Numbered from the stretch's first letter, positions 7,789 through 36,195 are shown. The stretch is 36,195 nt of DNA from an uncultured Dehalococcoidia bacterium (GCA_964401855.1 CAYOAF010000099.1:1-36195); one strand, 5' to 3'. The notes: generated from the sequence alone by a model not told the origin. Numbers and translations: made by a program.

Positions 7789-7839
7789 GGACCTCCCCTA
7801 AGTCCCCTCCTTGGGGAGGAGGGGACTTAGGGGAGGTCC
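7789..7839. repeat. Perfect 22-bp inverted repeat (hairpin) between convergent genes; possible bidirectional terminator or REP-like element
   Basis: GGACCTCCCCTAAGTCCCCTCC (7789-7810) pairs perfectly with GGAGGGGACTTAGGGGAGGTCC (7818-7839) around a 7-nt loop. No T-tract follows. Confidence 0.6.
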
Positions 7840-7862: not shown

Positions 7863-7899
7863 CCCTGCGATCCCCCCTTCGTAAGGAGGGACCGCAGGG
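7863..7899. repeat. Nested hairpin repeat containing the CCCCTTCGTAAGG core
   Basis: The outer arms are CCCTGCG (7863-7869) and CGCAGGG (7893-7899). The inner CCCCTTCGTAAGG (7874-7886) is identical to 24277-24289 inside fdhA. Confidence 0.5.
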
Positions 7900-16477: not shown

Positions 16478-16526
16478 GGAAATCCCCCTCGGTCCCTCAC
16501 TATGAAGGGGGATACAGGGGATTTTG
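16478..16526. repeat. Hairpin repeat of the AAGGGGGAT-CAGGGG-ATTT family
   Basis: GGAAATCCCCC...AAGGGGGATACAGGGGATTT. The outer 8-bp arms are 16480-16487 and 16517-16524. The 16505-16524 segment matches 24324-24344 inside fdhA. Confidence 0.55.
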
Positions 16527-19914: not shown

Positions 19915-20330
19915 ATGTCATTCTGAGCGAAGCGAAGAATCTCCCCTTTCGTAGCGGCTAGAGGGGCACACTTTTTGAATTACTATGTATACATCATGAG
20001 CAACGCTTCCAAAACCCTGTACGTTGGCGTGACAAACGACCTAGCCCGCAGAGTCGTCATACATAGAAACAAGACTGGCAGCGCATTCGTCAAGAAGTAC
20101 AACGTGACGAGGTTGGTCTATTTTGATGCCATTGAGGACGTATCCGCCGCAATTGCCCGCGAGAAACAACTCAAGGGTTGGGTGAGAACCAAGAAGACTG
20201 CCTTGATCGAGACGCTTAATCCCCAATGGAAGGACTTGAGCAATGGGTTCGTATAATAGCAGGAATGTCTGGTAACCGAGGCTGCCGGAGGGAGATTCTT
20301 CACCCGCCTCCGGCGGGTGAAGAATGACAT
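19915..20330 (+). mobile_element. Candidate 416-bp mobile unit: GIY-YIG nuclease gene bracketed by inverted copies of a hairpin repeat
   Basis: The left end 19915-19945 reads ATGTCATTCT-gagcgaagc-GAAGAATCTCCC. The right end 20290-20330, read on the minus strand, is ATGTCATTCT-tcacccgccggaggcgggt-GAAGAATCTCCC. The right copy forms a perfect 14-bp stem (20295-20308 with 20312-20325). Confidence 0.45.
19975..20256 (+). CDS. GIY-YIG nuclease family protein (YhbQ/UPF0213-like, single domain)
   Basis: NYYVYIMSNASKTLYVGVTNDLARRVVIHRN...REKQLKGW. The GIY/YVG, Arg and Glu positions of the GIY-YIG fold are all present. TTG start 9 nt after GAGGGG. Confidence 0.85.
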   Translation: MNYYVYIMSNASKTLYVGVTNDLARRVVIHRNKTGSAFVKKYNVTRLVYFDAIEDVSAAIAREKQLKGWVRTKKTALIETLNPQWKDLSNGFV

Positions 20331-20482: not shown

Positions 20483-20938
20483 GTGCACAACATGGAAGAA
20501 TGTTTGAGGGCGATTCTGTCGTCCCATGAGAAAGAGAAAGCTGAGCTGATACCGATCCTGCAAGAGGTCCAGGAGGAATACGGCTACCTTCCCCGGGAAA
20601 CAATGCTCGAAATCGCCAGGTTCACCCGCGTGCCCGAGGGACGGGTGTTCGGAGTGGCGTCGTTCTACGCCCAGTTCCGGTTTACGCCGGTGGGCAGGAA
20701 CATCGTCAGGGTTTGCCGGGGGACGGCCTGTCACGTCAGGGGCGCTCCGAAGATACTCCAGGAGATGGAGAACCAACTGGGCATCAAGGTGGACGAGACC
20801 ACTCCAGGCCTGGAATACACCCTGGAGACGGTGGCCTGTATCGGGGCCTGCTGTCTGGCCCCGGTGGTGAAGGTGGGAGCGGAAGTGCACGGCAAGCTGC
20901 GGTCCAGTGAAGTGGCCAAGATGCTGAAAGGACTCTGA
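20483..20938 (+). CDS. NuoE/HoxE-like [2Fe-2S] thioredoxin-fold subunit of an NAD-linked formate dehydrogenase/diaphorase module
   Basis: LIPILQEVQEEYGYLP...SFYAQFRF.P.GR..VRVCRGTACHVRG...ACIGACCLAPVV. Has the four-Cys pattern of the NuoE family. AGGGAG RBS upstream. Confidence 0.9.
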   Translation: MHNMEECLRAILSSHEKEKAELIPILQEVQEEYGYLPRETMLEIARFTRVPEGRVFGVASFYAQFRFTPVGRNIVRVCRGTACHVRGAPKILQEMENQLGIKVDETTPGLEYTLETVACIGACCLAPVVKVGAEVHGKLRSSEVAKMLKGL

Positions 20939-20939
20939 C

Positions 20940-22760
20940 ATGGCAACGCCCCAGCGCCGGACCGTCTTTGTCTGTCAAGGAACGGGGTGTGTTTCCGCCC
21001 GGTCGCCGGACATCCAGGCGGCCCTCCAGGGCCGCATCGATGAATCGGGCCTGAAAGACTGGGTAGACGTGAAGCTCAGCGGTTGTCACGGTTTCTGCGA
21101 GCAGGGTCCCCTCATAGCCATAGAACCCGAGGGCGTTCTATACACCCGTGCCAAGAGTGACGATGCTCTGAGAGTCGTCACGGAACACTTGGAGAACGGG
21201 ACGGCCGTGAAGGGTCTTCTCTACCGGGACCTGCTGACCGGGGCGCCGGTTCCCCACTACGCGGACATCCCGTTCTACAGTAAGCAGACGCGGCTTGTCT
21301 TGCGTAATTGCGGTCATATCGACCCCACAAAACTGGACGACTACCTGGCCGTTGACGGTTACGGAGGTCTCAAAAAGGCGTTCGAGCGGGGTCCAGAGGG
21401 GATAGTCGAAGAAATCAAAAAGTCGGGCCTGAGAGGAAGGGGCGGCGCCGGTTTCCCCACCTGGCGAAAGTGGCAGTTCTGCAGAGACGCAAAAGGCGGC
21501 CGGAAGTTCCTCATATGCAACGCCGACGAGGGCGACCCGGGGGCTTTCATGAACCGGTCGCTTCTGGAGGGAGACCCCCATTCCCTCCTGGAGGGGATGC
21601 TCATCGCCGGGTATGCAATCGGCGCCCATCAAGGCTACATTTATTGTCGCGCGGAGTATCCGCTGGCCCTGGAGAGGCTGCGGATAGCCATGGAGCAGGC
21701 GGAGGGGCACGGGCTGATTGGCGACGACATTATGGGTTCGGGATTCAGCTTCCGCATCAAGGTTAGCCAGGGCGCGGGGGCCTTCGTCTGCGGGGAGGAG
21801 ACAGGGCTGATCCTTTCGATCGAGGGCGAGCGCGGAATGCCCCGTCCCCGGCCGCCTTTCCCCGCCGTGTCGGGCCTGATGGGGAAGCCGACGGTGGTCA
21901 ACAACGTGGAGAGCCTGGCGTCCGTGGCGCTGATCCTGCAAGACGGCGCCGAGCGGTTTGCTCAGTACGGCACCGAGACGAGCAAGGGCACCAAGACCTT
22001 CGCCCTGGTTGGCAAGGTAAAGCTTTCGGGCCTCGTCGAGGTGCCCCTGGGCATCACTTTGCGCGAGATAGTCTACGATATTGGGGGAGGGGTACTCGGA
22101 GACAAGCAACTGAAAGCCGTTCAGACCGGCGGCCCTTCGGGGGGCTGTATCCCAGCCAGCATGATCGATATACCGGTAGACTACGATTCCCTCACCGCGG
22201 CCGGCACCATCATGGGCTCCGGCGGCATGGTGGTGATGGATGAAGGCACCTGTATGGTCGACGTTGCCCGCTATTTCGTGGACTTCACCCAGAAGGAGTC
22301 ATGCGGCAAATGCGTGCCCTGCCGGCTTGGCACCAGGCAGATGCTGGACATTCTGGAAGACATAACCCAGGGGAAGGGCTCCCCGGAGGACATCGACCTG
22401 CTCGTGGAGATGGGCGAGGGGGTGAAAACCGGCTCCCTGTGTGGACTCGGGCAGACGGCGCCGAACCCCGTGCTCACCACCATCCGGTATTTCCGGGACG
22501 AGTATGAGGCACACATCAACGAAAAGCGCTGCCCGGCCAAGGTGTGCACCGCCCTCATCTCCTACCACATCACGGAAGCGTGCGTCGGTTGCCTGCTGTG
22601 CTTAAAGGCCTGCTCCTCCGAGGCGATAGTGGGTGAGTTCAAGAAGCTCCACGTCATCGACCAGTCCAAGTGCACCCAGTGCGGAAGCTGTTTTGACGTG
22701 TGCCCGCCCAAGGTCAATGCCGTGGAGATCCTCTCCGGTCAGTTGGCCGCGGTACAATAG
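20940..22760 (+). CDS. NuoF/HydB-like NAD(P)H-binding flavoprotein subunit with extra N-terminal [2Fe-2S] and C-terminal 2x[4Fe-4S] domains
   Basis: GLRGRGGAGFPTWRKW (FMN/NADH site); ESCGKCVPCRLG..SLCGLG ([4Fe-4S]). The N-terminal VCQGTGC...GCHGFCEQGP is a thioredoxin-like domain. The C-terminal CVGCLLCLKAC and CTQCGSCFDVCP are ferredoxin motifs. Confidence 0.9.
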   Translation: MATPQRRTVFVCQGTGCVSARSPDIQAALQGRIDESGLKDWVDVKLSGCHGFCEQGPLIAIEPEGVLYTRAKSDDALRVVTEHLENGTAVKGLLYRDLLTGAPVPHYADIPFYSKQTRLVLRNCGHIDPTKLDDYLAVDGYGGLKKAFERGPEGIVEEIKKSGLRGRGGAGFPTWRKWQFCRDAKGGRKFLICNADEGDPGAFMNRSLLEGDPHSLLEGMLIAGYAIGAHQGYIYCRAEYPLALERLRIAMEQAEGHGLIGDDIMGSGFSFRIKVSQGAGAFVCGEETGLILSIEGERGMPRPRPPFPAVSGLMGKPTVVNNVESLASVALILQDGAERFAQYGTETSKGTKTFALVGKVKLSGLVEVPLGITLREIVYDIGGGVLGDKQLKAVQTGGPSGGCIPASMIDIPVDYDSLTAAGTIMGSGGMVVMDEGTCMVDVARYFVDFTQKESCGKCVPCRLGTRQMLDILEDITQGKGSPEDIDLLVEMGEGVKTGSLCGLGQTAPNPVLTTIRYFRDEYEAHINEKRCPAKVCTALISYHITEACVGCLLCLKACSSEAIVGEFKKLHVIDQSKCTQCGSCFDVCPPKVNAVEILSGQLAAVQ

Positions 22761-22789: not shown

Positions 22790-25564
22790 TTGATGGGCGA
22801 GGCCACTCTCACCATCGACGGACTGCAGGTCCCGGCATCCGAAGGCATGACCGTGATGGACGCGGCGCTCCAGAGCGGCATCTACATCCCCGGTCTCTGC
22901 CACCACCCGGACCTGAAGCCGGTCGGCGCGTGCCGGCTTTGCATGGTCGAGATCGAAGGAAGGGGACTGGTCGCCTCCTGCCTGGCCCCGGCCGAGCAGG
23001 GCCTTGTTGTCAACACGGTGAGCCCGGAGGCCGAGAGAACTCGTCGCGTCTCGGTGGAACTGCTGGTCGCGAATGACCGAGGAGAGTGCCTCACCTGCGC
23101 CAAGAACAACAGCTGCGGCCTCCAGGAGGTCGCTGCCTACATCGGCATCACGCCGGAGCGGATGGCCCGCTTGAGGAGTCCAACCGAGCCTCCCCCGGTT
23201 GACACATCCAATCCGTTCTTCGACTTCGACCCGGGCAAGTGCGTGCTTTGCGGTATCTGTGTCCGCACCTGTGACGAGATCGTCGGTGTCCACGCCATCG
23301 ACTACGCGTTCCGAGGGTACGACACCACCATCAGCGTCTTCGCCAACAAGCCCGTCATAGACTCCAGGTGCGTGTCCTGCGGGGAATGCGTGGTCCGGTG
23401 CCCGGTGGGGGCCCTGGTTCCCAAGGAGCACCGGCAACCCACCCGGGAGGTCAGCACCGTCTGCCCTTATTGCGGTGTCGGTTGCGGCATCTACCTGGGG
23501 GTCAGAGGCAACGAGGTCATCGCCTCCCGGGGCGACCCCGGCAACCGGTCCAGCCAGGGCCAGCTTTGCGTGAAAGGCCGCTACGGCTTCGGCTTCGTCA
23601 ACCATGAGGACAGGCTCACCACTCCCCTCATCCGGGTGGATGGAGAATTGAAGCCAGCCTCTTGGGACGAGGCGCTGGACTATGTGGCGGAGCGCCTGGT
23701 CCAGTACCGAGGCGACTCCTTTGCGTCGTTCTGCTCCGCCAAGACCACCAACGAGGACGCCTACATTCAGCAGAAGTTCGCCCGGCTGCTGATGCAGACC
23801 AACAACGTCGACCACTGCGCCCGGCTGTGTCACGCTCCTTCGGTCCTGGCGATGATGACAGCCCTGGGCAGCGGCGCTACTAGCAACTCGTACGTCGACT
23901 TCGAACAGGCCGGCTGTTTGATAGTCGTCGGCGCGGACCCAAACTCCAACCACCCTGTCGTTGCGGCCAGGATACAGCGAGCTGTGGCTGGGCGCGGCGT
24001 CAAGCTCATCGTAATCAACCCGCGCCGCGTCGATCTGTGCGACTACGCCGACCTGTGGCTGCGGCCGCGGCCCGGCACCGACGTCGCCCTGCTCAACGGG
24101 CTGGCGAAGGCCATCCTGGACGAGGGCCTGTTGGACCGGGAATTCGTGGCCAACCGCACCGAGGGCTTCGAAGAGTGGGCTGCGGTCGTCCACAAGTACA
24201 CCCTGGACCACGTTGAAGAGGTGACCGGTGTCTCCGCCGAAGACATCTGTCAGGCGGCGCGCATGTATGCTAACCTCCCCTTCGTAAGGGGGCGCGACGG
24301 TTCGTCTCTTCCCCCCTTTGATAAAGGGGGATCAGGGGGGATTTCCGGGGGCTCCTGCCTCATTTGGGGCATGGGGATCACCCAGCATGCCGCCGGCACG
24401 GCCAACGCCCATGGCCTGCTGAATCTGGCCCTGGTTTCCGGCCAGATCGGCAAACCCGGTTCCGGCGTCTCTCCGCTGCGGGGGCAGAACAACGTTCAGG
24501 GCTGCGGCGACGCGGGGTGCCTGCCCAACACCCTCCCCGGCTACCAGGCGATCAACGATGACAACGTCGCCGGATTCCAGGCAGCCTGGGGCGGCCATCC
24601 GCTGCCCAAAGAGCGCGGCTTGATGCTCACCGAGGCCGTGGAGGCGATGCCGGAGGGCCGCATCAAGGCCGTCTTCATAATGGGAGAGAACCCTCTCCTC
24701 AGCGAACCGGACCTGCACCACGCCGAAGAGGCCTTCCGGAGCCTGGAGTTCCTGGTGGTTCAGGACCTCTTCCTCCACGAGACCGCTCAGATCGCCGATG
24801 TTGTATTGCCGGCCACCTCCTTCGCCGAGAAAGACGGCACCTTCACCAACAGCGAGCGCCGCGTCCAGCGGGTCCGGAAGGCCATTCAGCCGCCAGGCCA
24901 GAGCCGCCCGGACTGGGAGATTGTCTGCGACCTGGGACGCCGCGTTTCGAAGCGGATGGGTCTGAGGCTGGAGGAGCAGTTCACGTTCGACAGCCCATCC
25001 CAGGTCTGGGACGAGATGGCCCGGCTGACCCCCTTCATCGGGGGGATCTCCTACGGCCGGCTGGAGGAGGGTGGGGTCCAGTGGCCTTGCCCCACGCCGG
25101 ACCACCCCGGCACGCGCTACCTGTACGCCGAAGGGTTTCCCCGGGGTCCGCGAGCCAAGTTCGTTGCCTTCGACCAAGGAAAGGCCGCTGAGGAGATGCC
25201 CAGCAAGCGGTACCCCTTCATCCTCAACACGGGCCGCGTCTTGTACCACTGGCACGGGGGCACCATGACCCGCAGGGTGGCCAAGCTGGTGGCCCGCTAT
25301 CCGGAGCTGCCGGTGGCCATCAATCCCGAGGACGGCCGAAAACACAACCTGGGCGACGGGCAGCCGGTCCGGGTTACCTCCCGCCGGGGCCAGCTCACCG
25401 GCAAAGCCCTGCTCACCGATGGTATGCGGGCGGGGGAGATTTTCATCCCCTTCGTGAAGCTGGAGGAGTCGGCGGCCAACTTCCTGACCAACTCGGTCTA
25501 CGACCCCAGCTCCAAGATCCCGGAATACAAGGTCTGCGCCGTCCGGTTGGAAGCCGTGGAGTAA
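22790..25564 (+). CDS. fdhA: Formate dehydrogenase catalytic (alpha) subunit, molybdo/tungstopterin, cysteine type, with NuoG-like N-terminal Fe-S domains
   Basis: N-terminal Fe-S motifs: CHHPDLKPVGACRLC, CLTCAKNNSC, CVLCGICVRTC, CVSCGECVVRCP. MopB cluster: CPYCGVGC. Active site NNVDHCARLCHAPS with Cys codon TGT at 23828-23830, where Sec enzymes have TGA. Also PLRGQNNVQG and a C-terminal MGD-binding barrel. The start is either TTG 22790 or ATG 22793, after GGAGG. Confidence 0.92.
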   Translation: MMGEATLTIDGLQVPASEGMTVMDAALQSGIYIPGLCHHPDLKPVGACRLCMVEIEGRGLVASCLAPAEQGLVVNTVSPEAERTRRVSVELLVANDRGECLTCAKNNSCGLQEVAAYIGITPERMARLRSPTEPPPVDTSNPFFDFDPGKCVLCGICVRTCDEIVGVHAIDYAFRGYDTTISVFANKPVIDSRCVSCGECVVRCPVGALVPKEHRQPTREVSTVCPYCGVGCGIYLGVRGNEVIASRGDPGNRSSQGQLCVKGRYGFGFVNHEDRLTTPLIRVDGELKPASWDEALDYVAERLVQYRGDSFASFCSAKTTNEDAYIQQKFARLLMQTNNVDHCARLCHAPSVLAMMTALGSGATSNSYVDFEQAGCLIVVGADPNSNHPVVAARIQRAVAGRGVKLIVINPRRVDLCDYADLWLRPRPGTDVALLNGLAKAILDEGLLDREFVANRTEGFEEWAAVVHKYTLDHVEEVTGVSAEDICQAARMYANLPFVRGRDGSSLPPFDKGGSGGISGGSCLIWGMGITQHAAGTANAHGLLNLALVSGQIGKPGSGVSPLRGQNNVQGCGDAGCLPNTLPGYQAINDDNVAGFQAAWGGHPLPKERGLMLTEAVEAMPEGRIKAVFIMGENPLLSEPDLHHAEEAFRSLEFLVVQDLFLHETAQIADVVLPATSFAEKDGTFTNSERRVQRVRKAIQPPGQSRPDWEIVCDLGRRVSKRMGLRLEEQFTFDSPSQVWDEMARLTPFIGGISYGRLEEGGVQWPCPTPDHPGTRYLYAEGFPRGPRAKFVAFDQGKAAEEMPSKRYPFILNTGRVLYHWHGGTMTRRVAKLVARYPELPVAINPEDGRKHNLGDGQPVRVTSRRGQLTGKALLTDGMRAGEIFIPFVKLEESAANFLTNSVYDPSSKIPEYKVCAVRLEAVE
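24275..24346 (+). repeat. 72-nt in-frame copy of the GC-rich hairpin repeat family inside fdhA (encodes LPFVRGRDGSSLPPFDKGGSGGIS)
   Basis: Contains CCCCTT-cgt-AAGGGG and CCCCCTTT-gat-AAAGGGGG hairpins. The 13-nt CCCCTTCGTAAGG is identical to 7874-7886, and AAGGGGGATCAGGGGGGATTT matches 16505-16524. Confidence 0.6.
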
Positions 25565-33761: not shown

Positions 33762-36195
33762 ATGTCCAGTCAGACAAGCACATCGGAAACACCGGCCAGA
33801 GAGGCGGTACATGAGGCCGTCCGGCGCATCCAGGACTATTTTCGCCGGACCCAGTACTTGGACGGCTACTGGTGTGGCGAGTTGGAAACCAACGCCACCA
33901 TGGAGGCCGAATACTTGATGCTGGGCTATTTCCTGGGCCGGCAGGACCAGGAGCGCTGGCGTAAGGTCACCAACTACATCTTGAGCAAACAGCGGGAGGA
34001 CGGCTCCTGGGGCCAGTACTACCAGGCTCCCGGAGACCTGAGTACTTCGGTGGAATGCTACTTCGCCTTGAAGCTGGCTGGTTACTCTTCGGATGCAGAG
34101 CCCCTGCGCCGGGCCCGGCGGTTTATCCTGTCTCGCGGGGGCGTGCCCAAGGTGCGCGTGTTCACCAAGATCTGGCTGGCCCTGTTTGGTCAGTGGGACT
34201 GGCGGGGCACGCCCAATATGCCTCCCGAAATGATCTTTCTGCCCTCCTGGGTTCCCTTCAACCTATACGAGTTCGCCAGTTGGGCCAGGGCCACCATGGT
34301 TCCCATGCTCATCATCCTGACTCACCGGCCCAGTTGCTCCGTGCCCGAGTCGGCTCGCATCGACGAGCTTTACCACCAGCCCCGGAAGGAGACCGATTAC
34401 TCGCTTCCAAAGCCCAAGAACCGCTTGGGATGGGCCTGGGTGCTGCACTGCCTGGACCGGGCCGCCGGTCTGTACCGGAAGCTGCCGATGCACCCCTTCC
34501 GGGGATGGGCAGAGCGAAGGATCGTCGACTGGATATTGCGTCATCAGGAGGTAGACGGTTGCTGGGGTGGTATCCAGCCCCCCTGGGTCTACTCGCTCAT
34601 CGCGCTGCACCACCTGGGGTTTCCTTCCGATCACCCGGCGATGGAGAAGGGGTATGCCGGATTTGAGGGATATGCCATCGAGGACGAAGACACCTGCACG
34701 GTTCAAGCCTGCATGTCCCCGGTTTGGGATACCTGTCTGGCCCAGCGTGCTCTGCTGGAATCCGGGGTAGCCGAGGACGACCCCATGGTGCGCAGGTCTA
34801 CCCGCTGGCTGTTGGGCCAGCAGATCCTGAACGCTGGTGATTGGCAGGTCCGGGCCAAGAATACCCAGCCCGGCGGCTGGGCTTTCGAGTTCCACAATGA
34901 CCAGTACCCGGACATCGACGATGCGTCGGAAGTGATCATGGCCCTGGCCTCGGCCAGGCTCGACCCTGAGGCGGAGCACCTCCGTGAGGAGGCCATCGGC
35001 CGCGGGGTTGAGTGGTTGCTGGCGTTGCAATCTAAGAACGGCGGCTGGGCCGCCTTTGACAAGGACAACGGCCGCAAGCACCTGACCATGCTTCCTTTTT
35101 CCGACTTCGGAGAAACGCTGGACCCACCCAGCGCGGATGTTACCGCTCACCTGGTGGAGATGTTCGGCAGGCTGGGCTACACCTGGCAATTTCCGGCCTT
35201 GCGCCGGGCTTACACCTATTTGCGGCGGGAGCAGGAGGGGGACGGGTCCTGGTTCGGGCGTTGGGGCGTCAACCACGTCTACGGGACCGGGGCGGTGCTG
35301 CCGGCACTGGCGGCGATCGGTGAAAACATGGACCAACCCTACATCCGTCGGGCCGTGAACTGGTTGCTGGCTCACCAGAACGGCGATGGTGGCTGGGGAG
35401 AAAGCTGCGGTTCCTACGTGGACCCGGCGCTTCGAGGGGTGGGGGCCAGCACGGCCTCCCAGACCGCCTGGGCCTTGATGGCGTTGCTGGCCGCGGGGGA
35501 GGAAGCACACCCGGCGACCCACCGGGGAATCCGCTACTTGCTGGACACCCAGACCGATAATGGCTCCTGGGACGAACCCTATTTCACCGGCACCGGGTTC
35601 CCCGGTTATGGCGTGGGAGAGAGGGTGGAAACCCTGCCAAAACCGGGAGAACAGGGCCGCCAGGGCCTGGATATGCCGGCCGGATTCATGATCAACTACC
35701 ACCTCTACCGGAACACTTGGCCCTTGATGGCCATGGGGCGGTACGCCAGGCTTCTCGACGCAAAGCGGGGCGCCCAGAAAATCACCAGGCTCTTTGAGAC
35801 CCAAGAGGCATTTTCATCCGCAGGGAGACAGGAAGGATCAGGAAAGAAAATGAATAGCAAGTCTTTTTGCCTCCAGTTGAACACCCAAAGAGCACCGGAT
35901 TTCATTGATATCACCGAGTGGGTTTGTAAGTGCGTGGCCAAATCCAAGGTCGGCAACGGCTTCGCGGTAGTCTACTCCAAACACACTACCGCCGCGGTGA
36001 GAATCAATGAAAACGAGCCTCTGTTGCTCCAGGATATGGCAAAATTCTTGGAAAAGATGTCGCCCCGCAACGGCGGATACGACCACAACGACTTCAGCAT
36101 TCGCACCGTCAACATGAGTTCAGATGAGTCACCCAACGGCCATGCCCACTTGCAACACCTGCTGTTGGGTACCAGCGAGACCGTGCCCGTGATCG
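33762..36195 (+). CDS. shc: Squalene-hopene cyclase; the reading frame has no stop and continues in frame into a YjbQ/UPF0047 module (3' end outside the window)
   Basis: Hand translation from ATG 33762 (codons at positions divisible by 3) is open to base 36195 with no stop, so it is absent from the ORF track. SHC hallmarks: the DxDD motif as DIDD (34911-34922), QW-type repeats (QREDGSWG, QEGDGSWFGRWG, QNGDGGWGE, QTDNGSWDE), GGWAFEF, and the C-terminal TGTGFP...FMINYHLYRNTWPLMAMGRY. Confidence 0.9.
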   Translation, partial: MSSQTSTSETPAREAVHEAVRRIQDYFRRTQYLDGYWCGELETNATMEAEYLMLGYFLGRQDQERWRKVTNYILSKQREDGSWGQYYQAPGDLSTSVECYFALKLAGYSSDAEPLRRARRFILSRGGVPKVRVFTKIWLALFGQWDWRGTPNMPPEMIFLPSWVPFNLYEFASWARATMVPMLIILTHRPSCSVPESARIDELYHQPRKETDYSLPKPKNRLGWAWVLHCLDRAAGLYRKLPMHPFRGWAERRIVDWILRHQEVDGCWGGIQPPWVYSLIALHHLGFPSDHPAMEKGYAGFEGYAIEDEDTCTVQACMSPVWDTCLAQRALLESGVAEDDPMVRRSTRWLLGQQILNAGDWQVRAKNTQPGGWAFEFHNDQYPDIDDASEVIMALASARLDPEAEHLREEAIGRGVEWLLALQSKNGGWAAFDKDNGRKHLTMLPFSDFGETLDPPSADVTAHLVEMFGRLGYTWQFPALRRAYTYLRREQEGDGSWFGRWGVNHVYGTGAVLPALAAIGENMDQPYIRRAVNWLLAHQNGDGGWGESCGSYVDPALRGVGASTASQTAWALMALLAAGEEAHPATHRGIRYLLDTQTDNGSWDEPYFTGTGFPGYGVGERVETLPKPGEQGRQGLDMPAGFMINYHLYRNTWPLMAMGRYARLLDAKRGAQKITRLFETQEAFSSAGRQEGSGKKMNSKSFCLQLNTQRAPDFIDITEWVCKCVAKSKVGNGFAVVYSKHTTAAVRINENEPLLLQDMAKFLEKMSPRNGGYDHNDFSIRTVNMSSDESPNGHAHLQHLLLGTSETVPVI
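35850..36195 (+). other. YjbQ/UPF0047 (secondary thiamine-phosphate synthase-like) module, N-terminal ~115 aa, in the same frame as shc; may also be translated on its own from ATG 35850
   Basis: MNSKSFCLQLNTQRAPDFIDITEWV...GFAVVYSKHTTAAVRINENEPLLLQDMAKFLEKMSP..YDHND...NGHAHLQHLLLGTSETVPV matches the UPF0047 pattern (HTTA..INEN.....D......P....Y.H......N..AH....LLG.S...P). A purine-rich SD-like AGGAAGGATCAGGAAAG precedes the ATG. GC drops visibly from ~35790. Confidence 0.75.

Follow-up and report, generated by a model that had tools for sequence, protein, structure and literature searches.

A REP-like palindromic repeat of the host genome probably encodes a Pro/Gly-rich loop of formate dehydrogenase in an uncultured Dehalococcoidia bacterium

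The window analysed here is a stretch of 36,195 nucleotides from an uncultured Dehalococcoidia bacterium (GCA_964401855.1, CAYOAF010000099.1:1-36195). It is contig C99 of a 2.78-Mb assembly (G000; 265 contigs, 62.7% G+C), a fragmented metagenome-assembled genome (MAG) that is about 91% complete with 6% contamination. The window carries fdhA, the gene for the alpha subunit of a formate dehydrogenase, and a 72-nt segment with two hairpins (24275-24346) lies inside its coding frame. We propose that this segment is very probably an intragenic copy of the genome's own repeats, which resemble repetitive extragenic palindromic (REP) sequences, and that it is translated as a Pro/Gly loop in a working fdhA. 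The segment would be a dimer, in which a hairpin of a repeat family here called A is followed by a nested hairpin of a second family, B, without its left outer arm, and the insert would occupy a permissive helix-to-strand connection in the MopB domain of FdhA. Since the stems are C and G runs, they read as Pro-Pro ... Gly-Gly in open frames; the translated element would be a flexible Pro/Gly-rich loop, and the enzyme would stay functional. Rather than a fresh landing, the insert was probably present already in the ancestor of the genus-level lineage, and its B module may be much older. Since then the loop would have acquired, lost and swapped hairpins, with every change a multiple of three bases.

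The 72-nt segment of fdhA

The fdhA open reading frame (ORF; 22790-25564, plus strand) is a single open frame of 924 codons, with an ATG at 22793 and an in-frame TTG upstream at 22790. The segment reads CTCCCCTTCGTAAGGGGGCGCGACGGTTCGTCTCTTCCCCCCTTTGATAAAGGGGGATCAGGGGGGATTTCC and is translated in frame into LPFVRGRDGSSLPPFDKGGSGGIS, which lengthens the stretch between ARMYA and GSCLIWGMGITQH by about 21-23 residues. In the solved homologue 7vw6 this stretch is ARLYARAKSSLIFWGMG, aligned with a gap of 23 columns from ARLYARA to SSLIFWGMG. The extra segment is also absent from 6tg9 and from 47 of the 76 distinct orthologues, which have a ten-residue form, xPPFSGSCLI; the remaining orthologues have homologous or different loops at the site. 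In the orthologues without the insert, the minimal site PPFSG is usually encoded by CCGCCGTTCAGCGGC, a palindrome with a 4-bp stem (GCCG/CGGC), which could matter if hairpin repeats target existing palindromes.

An earlier note on the window, made from the sequence alone, had described these 72 nt as two hairpins inserted in frame in fdhA, and had put only a short spacing between the motifs ARxYA and GxG(I/V)T(Q/E)H in homologues. The ORF indeed reads through the segment, both hairpins are present (24277-24291 and 24312-24330, the latter with the stem-loop-stem CCCCCTTT-GAT-AAAGGGGG), and the short spacing is that of 7vw6 and of the 47 orthologues. Strings shared with two intergenic repeats had been pointed out as well: the 13-mer at 7874-7886 is exact, and the repeat near 16505-16524 is real, with a 76% inverted match at 16478-16511 and a family-B score for 16479-16525.

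The codon usage of the segment is foreign to fdhA, pointing to an origin at the DNA level. Five of its seven Gly codons are GGG, compared with 16 of 85 in the rest of the gene, and it uses the rare codons GTA, AGG, TTT, AAA and ATT. The tryptic peptides expected from the loop are DGSSLPPFDK and GGSGGISGGSCLIWGMGITQH.

The 72 nt are not an assembly artefact, because an independent contig carries the same segment. This contig (L103, from Joint Genome Institute (JGI) metagenome 3300035250; 16 kb, protein P0003) has 15 differences from the window over 2769 nt (99.5% identical). Its two differences inside the segment, C for T at 24276 and G for A at 24331, each complete a stem.

Repeat families A and B in the genome

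When the segment was compared with the whole assembly by short-word BLAST, it fell into two modules, the 5' one belonging to family A and the 3' one (24311-24346) to family B. Family B consists of nested hairpins about 50 nt long, GAAATCCCCC-N4-CCCCCCTTT-NNT-AAAGGGGGG-N4-GGGGGATTTC, and the N4 parts of its stem co-vary between intergenic copies through compensatory changes. With E<0.01 as the threshold for a locus, an nhmmer profile built from 12 intergenic copies finds 55 family-B loci in the assembly, and the fdhA copy matches it with E=1.2e-8 over model positions 10-48. Because the profile alignment starts only at model position 10, the left outer arm is missing from the fdhA copy. Between the fdhA segment and C123:8985-9020, 33 of 36 nt are identical (E=7e-7). 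The sequence ..TTGCGACGAG-AAATCCCCC stands before many intergenic B copies, and the fdhA copy retains the GCGACG of that flank.

The family-B core CCCCTTT-N2-4-AAAGGGG occurs in 24 copies in the 2.78-Mb assembly versus 0.03 expected, and the family-A core pattern in 25 copies versus far fewer than one expected. The exact 15-mer of hairpin 1, CCCCTTCGTAAGGGG, is present in eight copies, plus seven of its reverse complement (0.006 expected for each), and hairpin 1 also has an 18-nt exact match to contigs C183 and C27. Reversed-pattern controls for the two families gave 0 hits in this genome and near zero among relatives. In intergenic DNA, the family-A core is usually part of double-hairpin elements of about 90 nt.

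Family B is mainly extragenic and its intragenic copies are a minority: by crude ORF-based gene calls, 36 of the 41 classifiable loci (E<1e-3) lie between gene-like ORFs and five inside them. By the same calls, 18 intergenic copies are tandem, 10 convergent and 8 divergent, with no clear terminator-like bias. The distribution of the two families among relatives is patchy, some genera of the same family reaching tens of copies and others having none; they are present in 8 of the 19 sampled genomes of that family, each from a different genus except this genome and its congener G001. A search of Rfam returned no family at the gathering score anywhere in the window.

The flanks of the B loci in this genome show that the intergenic unit extends beyond the 50-nt hairpin and is asymmetric, with CCTTGCGACGAG often on one side and GTTCACC..CGATGC on the other; the full family-B element therefore measures about 85 nt and has an orientation. 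A further hairpin family is represented in the window by a perfect palindrome with 23-nt arms (GGACCTCCCCTAAGTCCCCTCCT/AGGAGGGGACTTAGGGGAGGTCC) at 7789-7839, just upstream of the nested hairpin at 7863-7899.

Conservation of the B module in distant orthologues

The same B module stands at the same fdhA codons in four distant orthologues: L045, L107, L108 and L109, the last of which belongs to a SAR202 MAG. They are about 60-63% identical to the window protein over the whole length, and L107 and L108 reach 70-71% over residues 400-620. The junction ATTTCC-NNN-GGCTCC and the missing left arm are common to the window and the distant orthologues with a B module. In the four, the module is identical to that of the window at 29-33 of 36 nt and at 10-11 of 12 third codon positions, compared with about 50% identity at the third positions of 200 conserved flanking codons (Fisher p 0.003-0.045). 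In addition, the same rare codons (TTT, AAA, ATT, GGG) recur in the B modules of all these orthologues. The pattern is one of conservation or homogenisation of the B module at the DNA level, not of selection on the peptide. The way in which the repeats move or are homogenised is inferred, and the uniformity of the module has three possible causes: one old insertion under nucleic-acid constraint, gene conversion from dispersed copies, or repeated site-specific insertion.

Turnover of the loop among relatives

Four genus-level relatives show how the loop varies over short distances (identities over residues 400-620). The loop of L106 (84% identical) features ...CCCCCCCTTACGAAGGGGGGG-ATGGGGGGGGTC, and that of L104 (83%) features ACCCCCCCCATC-CCCCCCTTCGTAAGGGGGG ... 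CCCCCCCTTACGAGGGGGGGG. L105 (79%) has the same hairpin types and the longest loop of the set, and L002 of the congener G001 (82%) has a shortened single hairpin with a partly broken stem. Two hairpins make up the loop in L104, L105 and L106, as in the near-identical L103. The A-to-W spacers of these relatives, with lengths of 21, 31, 43 and 53 residues, are all in frame. Because their loops share its hairpin types, the composite insert appears to predate the genus-level lineages. Hairpin 1 is found in L103, L104 and L105, and the sequences flanking the loops of L104 and L105 resemble the ends of intergenic family-A elements. We had considered that hairpin 1 was specific to this genome and had been added after its split from G001; its presence in L104 and L105 led us to reject this, and G001 has probably lost it.

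Only about three changes are required to explain loop presence on the FdhA tree, where the window lineage, a loop-bearing clade of 19 members and a loop-less clade of 29 form an unresolved three-way split. In the loop-bearing clade and further metagenome proteins, the A-to-W spacer ranges from 13 to 54 residues and the sequences are very different; a third hairpin type, CCCCTCTCC-N-GGAGAGGGG, builds some of these loops (L016, L044). All loop variants at the site are in frame and free of stops, both in the 29 loop-bearing orthologues and in a set of more than 50 proteins. The hairpin of L004 was taken for a reversed family-A copy, an assignment that was dropped when alignment with its sister L045 showed a shortened B module.

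The metagenome orthologue P0010 (70% identical over residues 400-620) has four peptide inserts of the hairpin type, of which two are near-identical: KSPLTPLYERGEPSPPPLQRGKEGDF, around residue 100, and KSPLTPLYERGEPSRPPLQRGKEGDF, which stands at the ARxYA/GSCLI site. Another protein, P0008, has PPFVKGGWGDF at the position near residue 100.

Function and predicted structure of the enzyme

Outside the insert, the ratio of nonsynonymous to synonymous substitution rates (dN/dS, omega) is 0.136 against L002 (dS 0.44) and 0.125 against L106 (dS 0.35), with an overall range of 0.125-0.145; by this measure fdhA has evolved under purifying selection with the loop in place. Alignment columns without variation hold both the catalytic Cys-His (HCARLCHAPSV, C347/H348) and the catalytic Arg (PLRGQNNVQG, R564). 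Because omega is about 0.13 and the catalytic residues and partner genes are intact, it seems unlikely that the insert impairs the enzyme.

In an AlphaFold2 (AF2) model, the segment is coil, with a predicted local distance difference test score (pLDDT) below 50 at residues 501-519, between a confident helix (483-494) and a strand (523-526) leading into WGMGITQH. For the segment the model thus predicts an unstructured loop that joins a helix to a strand in the MopB domain. From established knowledge of such folds, this helix-to-strand connection, on the N-terminal edge of a Rossmann-type sheet, would lie opposite the cofactor-binding edge. We infer that the loop is exposed at the surface and neutral for catalysis.

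In-frame copies in other genes

All A and B loci were screened for long spanning frames with gene-like G+C content at third codon positions (GC3), and the in-frame copies recovered in other genes are listed in Table 1. Because the same families occur in at least five (probably six) other genes, the repeats are best described as genome-wide selfish or neutral DNA, which would be filtered by selection for frame and surface position, like the palindromic elements of Rickettsia and intragenic REPs. The CoA-transferase gene gives a comparison between congeners whose orthologues are 90% identical: this genome has a full family-B unit and G001 has CCCCTCTCCC-TCA-GGGAGAGGGG (L098:2080-2115), between the same flanks. 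At this site the loop is shorter or missing in two other relatives. These alignments suggest a cassette-like replacement at the CoA-transferase site.

Host gene, neighbouring genes and other features

The FdhA protein has the Pfam domains Fer2_4, NADH-G_4Fe-4S_3 (NuoG-type 4Fe-4S), two Fer4, Molybdop_Fe4S4, Molybdopterin and Molydop_binding. Its top solved homologues are the alpha subunits of NAD-linked formate dehydrogenases (7vw6/7e5z, E=3e-202), followed by 6tg9/6tga. Intact NuoE-like and NuoF-like (fdsG/fdsB-like) genes lie directly upstream, so the enzyme is of the FdsGBA type. MopB architecture, N-terminal Fe-S domains, catalytic residues and NuoE/NuoF-like partners are all found, as in FdsA/FdhF-type alpha subunits. 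Counted from the ATG, the protein is on record as P0002 in a singleton cluster; counted from the TTG, an exact look-up gave no record. The loci related to fdhA all come from Dehalococcoidia/SAR202-type Chloroflexota MAGs.

A GIY-YIG (Ssn-type) nuclease gene at 19987-20256 has inverted repeats, GTCATTCT...GAAGAATC, on both sides (19915-20330). A link between these repeats and the fdhA insert was considered and rejected, the repeats being of a different family from A and B. Elsewhere in the window, the DNA at 35604-35684 contains neither a strong hairpin nor a core of family A or B.

Table 1. Coordinates of the segment and its parts, of the fdhA operon genes and of related repeat copies
Feature	Location	Strand	Basis or remark
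fdhA, alpha subunit of FdsA/FdhF-type Mo/W-bis-PGD (bis-pyranopterin guanine dinucleotide) formate dehydrogenase	22793..25564	+	Pfam domains, solved homologues
Whole extra segment, codons L496-G520 (TTG numbering); 24275-24346 are its first 24 codons	24275..24349	+	Gap in ortholog alignments A1 and A2 and solved homologues
Hairpin 1, family-A core CCCCTT-CGT-AAGGGG, encodes P-F-V-R-G; rare codons GTA and AGG	24277..24291	+	25 genome copies of the pattern
GCGACG motif (24294-24299), then degenerate left outer arm of family-B element (24300-24310)	24294..24310	+	Intergenic B copies
Inner hairpin of family-B element, CCCCCCTTT-GAT-AAAGGGGG, encodes P-P-F-D-K-G-G	24311..24330	+	nhmmer E=1.2e-8
Right outer arm of family-B element, TCAGGGGGGATTTCC, encodes S-G-G-I-S	24332..24346	+	Matches the GGGGGATTTC arm of intergenic copies
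Intergenic family-B copy between convergent ORFs	16479..16525		nhmmer E=2.5e-4; inverted match to 24313-24346
Intergenic nested hairpin, core CCCCTTCGTAAGG equal to the start of hairpin 1	7863..7899		Exact 13-mer; weak profile match, E=0.78
NuoE-like partner gene	20483-20938	+	Pfam 2Fe-2S_thioredx
NuoF-like partner gene	20940-22760	+	Pfam Complex1_51K, NADH_4Fe-4S and Fer4
IleRS in-frame copy	query residues 215-257		No counterpart in 8c8w or 1ile; about 32-39 extra residues
CaiB-type CoA-transferase in-frame copy, PISPPFGKGGLGGIS	C123:8972-9020		About 23 extra residues versus 4ed9
QueA in-frame copy			About 29 extra residues versus 1wdi
CbiG in-frame copy			CbiG_C domain split
Acyl-CoA synthetase in-frame copy, PPFVRGDEKG			Spanning-frame screen
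MetH in-frame copy (probable)			Spanning-frame screen

Alternative explanations

Several observations weigh against reading the segment as a translated repeat. At -34.8 kcal/mol, its RNA folding energy does not surpass that of dinucleotide shuffles (z=0.08); because C runs and G runs pair in any order, the hairpin argument rests on family membership, not on folding energy. The AF2 model, computed from 30 sequences, is mediocre (mean pLDDT 71, predicted template modelling score (pTM) 0.63). As for a mover, a search for the Y1 transposase associated with REPs (REP-associated tyrosine transposase, RAYT; PF01797) gave no match in this genome or in G001 and did match control genomes, an absence that is not proven because the assembly is only about 91% complete, and clustering of the ORFs around 71 repeat sites brought up only abundant metabolic paralogues and no candidate mobilising gene. 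Orthologues in the genomes G010, G012 and G016 have loops at the site though these genomes are without the repeat families, so not every loop there is traceable to a repeat. This variation in site length, seen in many orthologues, and the shuffle result would also fit ordinary lineage-specific loop evolution, with the likeness to repeats as a by-product of Pro/Gly codons in a GC-rich genome. We think that very improbable: the profile match has E=1.2e-8, the 33/36 match takes in AT-rich parts (TTTGATAAA, ATTTCC) left unexplained by Pro/Gly coding, and the codon usage is atypical for the gene. An assembly chimera, or a pseudogene disabled by the insert, might be suspected in a MAG of 265 contigs with 6% contamination, repeats being classic places of misassembly; with the same insert in the independent contig L103, homologous inserts in relatives, a full-length open frame, an omega of about 0.13 and the catalytic residues kept, we give this explanation hardly any weight. 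Least credible is a skipped insert, either bypassed in translation in the manner of T4 gene 60 and the GC-hairpin 'byp' elements of yeast mitochondria or removed from the RNA. A GC-rich hairpin inside a coding gene is superficially byp-like, but every loop variant is in frame and without a stop, as skipped elements need not be, and no take-off/landing codon pair was noted, although no search was made for one.

Two other alternatives carry more weight. Independent, repeated insertion at one hot spot, perhaps attracted by the palindromic ancestral PPFSG codons (consensus CCGCCGTTCAGCGGC) or by an earlier repeat, is a serious possibility that we do not favour. Unrelated hairpin types occupy the same site, A and B in the window lineage versus CCCCTCTCC-N-GGAGAGGGG in L016 and L044; the CoA-transferase congeners have different hairpins between identical flanks; the minimal site is a 4-bp palindrome in most orthologues; and REPs are described as targets for further insertions in the survey literature (PMC3733652). 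On the other hand, the 3' junction and the lost left arm shared by the window, L045, L107 and L108 are simpler as one event, and loop presence takes only about three changes on the FdhA tree. Alternatively, the hairpin could be a functional nucleic-acid element under its own selection, such as a binding site for the host factor maintaining the dispersed family, a structure in mRNA or DNA at which translation or replication pauses, or a site to which repeats direct gene conversion. The excess of conserved third positions in the B modules of the four distant orthologues, the same rare codons and the same missing arm in all B-module lineages, and stems that are kept while loop bases vary, with compensatory changes in intergenic copies, speak for such a role. 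Many orthologues of the same clade, however, have lost any hairpin yet keep a loop, the stem of L002 is already broken, no partner protein was identified, and gene conversion by dispersed copies or repeated site-specific insertion gives the same pattern; we therefore hold it to be rather unlikely. A bolder proposal, to which we lend limited credence, is that the fdhA hairpin is a nucleic-acid element actively kept in register with its dispersed family, by gene conversion or by a repeat-recognising factor, and that the loop sites of FdhA and the CoA-transferase are hot spots where hairpins replace one another. If so, the repeats would generate in-frame Pro/Gly loop cassettes for proteins of Dehalococcoidia/SAR202, which the orthologue with four inserts would fit.

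For the origin of the segment we thus retain an intragenic copy of the genome's own repeats, with a history longer than the earlier note had assumed. That note envisaged a repeat copy landing in the gene with the frame preserved. Repeat origin, insertion and frame all stand, but not a single recent landing of 72 nt, for the segment appears old or recurrently placed, composite and turning over. The note itself had named a homologous segment in orthologues from diverse lineages as evidence against its picture, and L045, L107, L108 and L109 have one. One recent landing is too simple a picture, because the loop is hypervariable across a clade of Dehalococcoidia FdhA and relatives have hairpin loops. 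The note had also left a choice between a decorated surface loop and an impaired enzyme; the model predicts a loop of the MopB domain, and impairment is disfavoured by an omega of 0.13-0.14 over dS 0.35-0.44 with catalytic residues and partner genes intact.

Comparison with known repeat systems

Palindromic repeats inside working genes are best known from Rickettsia. As reviewed, the Rickettsia palindromic elements (RPEs; Ogata et al. 2000) are dispersed, many of them lie in frame in unrelated genes, and orthologous insertions are shared by species (PMC10969869, PMC3733652). The repeats studied here are like RPEs in being palindromic, in frame in housekeeping and metabolic genes, shared by relatives and decaying with time, and probably also in being translated into segments that the fold would accommodate. 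RPEs, however, are about 100-150 bp long, encode 30-50 residues and belong to an obligate intracellular alphaproteobacterium with a reduced AT-rich genome, whereas the present elements are C-run/G-run hairpins of 20-50 nt in free-living GC-rich Dehalococcoidia. Unlike RPEs, moreover, several hairpin types exchange at one fdhA site. No sequence relationship to RPEs is expected.

A closer likeness in size is offered by the GTAG/CGTC-tagged REP superfamilies (Di Nocera et al. 2013), whose intragenic members occur in several Proteobacteria and others; their dimers encode 20-30 residues in ORFs, with tRNA synthetase genes among the hosts (PMC3733652). As there, the elements are GC-rich stem-loops of 20-40 nt, often inverted dimers, mostly extragenic and in a minority wholly within ORFs. 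A REP tag is only suggestive here: GACG/CGTC occurs within 16 nt of 20 of 47 B loci, versus a background of 7.7% per 19-nt stretch, often within TTGCGACGAG and not at the stem base. Unlike in REP/RAYT (REPIN) systems, no RAYT gene was found in this genome or its congener. In what was read of that survey, neither families A and B nor this phylum-level lineage was seen (PMC3733652).

Enterobacterial ERIC/RU elements and bacterial MITEs (miniature transposable elements with inverted repeats) are non-autonomous, have inverted repeats, have been found intragenically and can create in-frame fusions (PMC2759123, PMC3184786, PMC10969869). They measure 100-300 bp, with terminal inverted repeats, target-site duplications and usually an insertion sequence (IS) relative; here the whole unit is palindromic, and no recurring neighbouring gene or transposase was found. 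Unlike bypass elements (T4 gene 60, mitochondrial byps), the fdhA-site variants never break the frame or carry stops. The GIY-YIG nuclease repeat system also puts hairpin repeats into this window, 2.5 kb upstream of the fdh operon, but these belong to another family than A and B.

These comparisons extend a habit known from Rickettsia and scattered REP-rich Proteobacteria, that of palindromic repeats in working genes, to an abundant uncultured lineage of Chloroflexota, where it is common. The habit reaches core enzymes (formate dehydrogenase, IleRS, QueA, CbiG and probably MetH). For annotation and modelling, odd Pro/Gly-rich loops in proteins of these MAGs are to be read as repeat DNA, neither functional motifs nor assembly errors, and the loops provide a natural map of insertion-tolerant sites in the enzymes. 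The cross-genus conservation of the module at the DNA level bears on what keeps such repeats uniform. The fdhA segment is accordingly an intragenic REP/RPE-like element, which follows the same logic as the known cases and differs from them in phylum, in repeat families, in the exchange of hairpins at one site and in the conservation of a module across genera at the DNA level.

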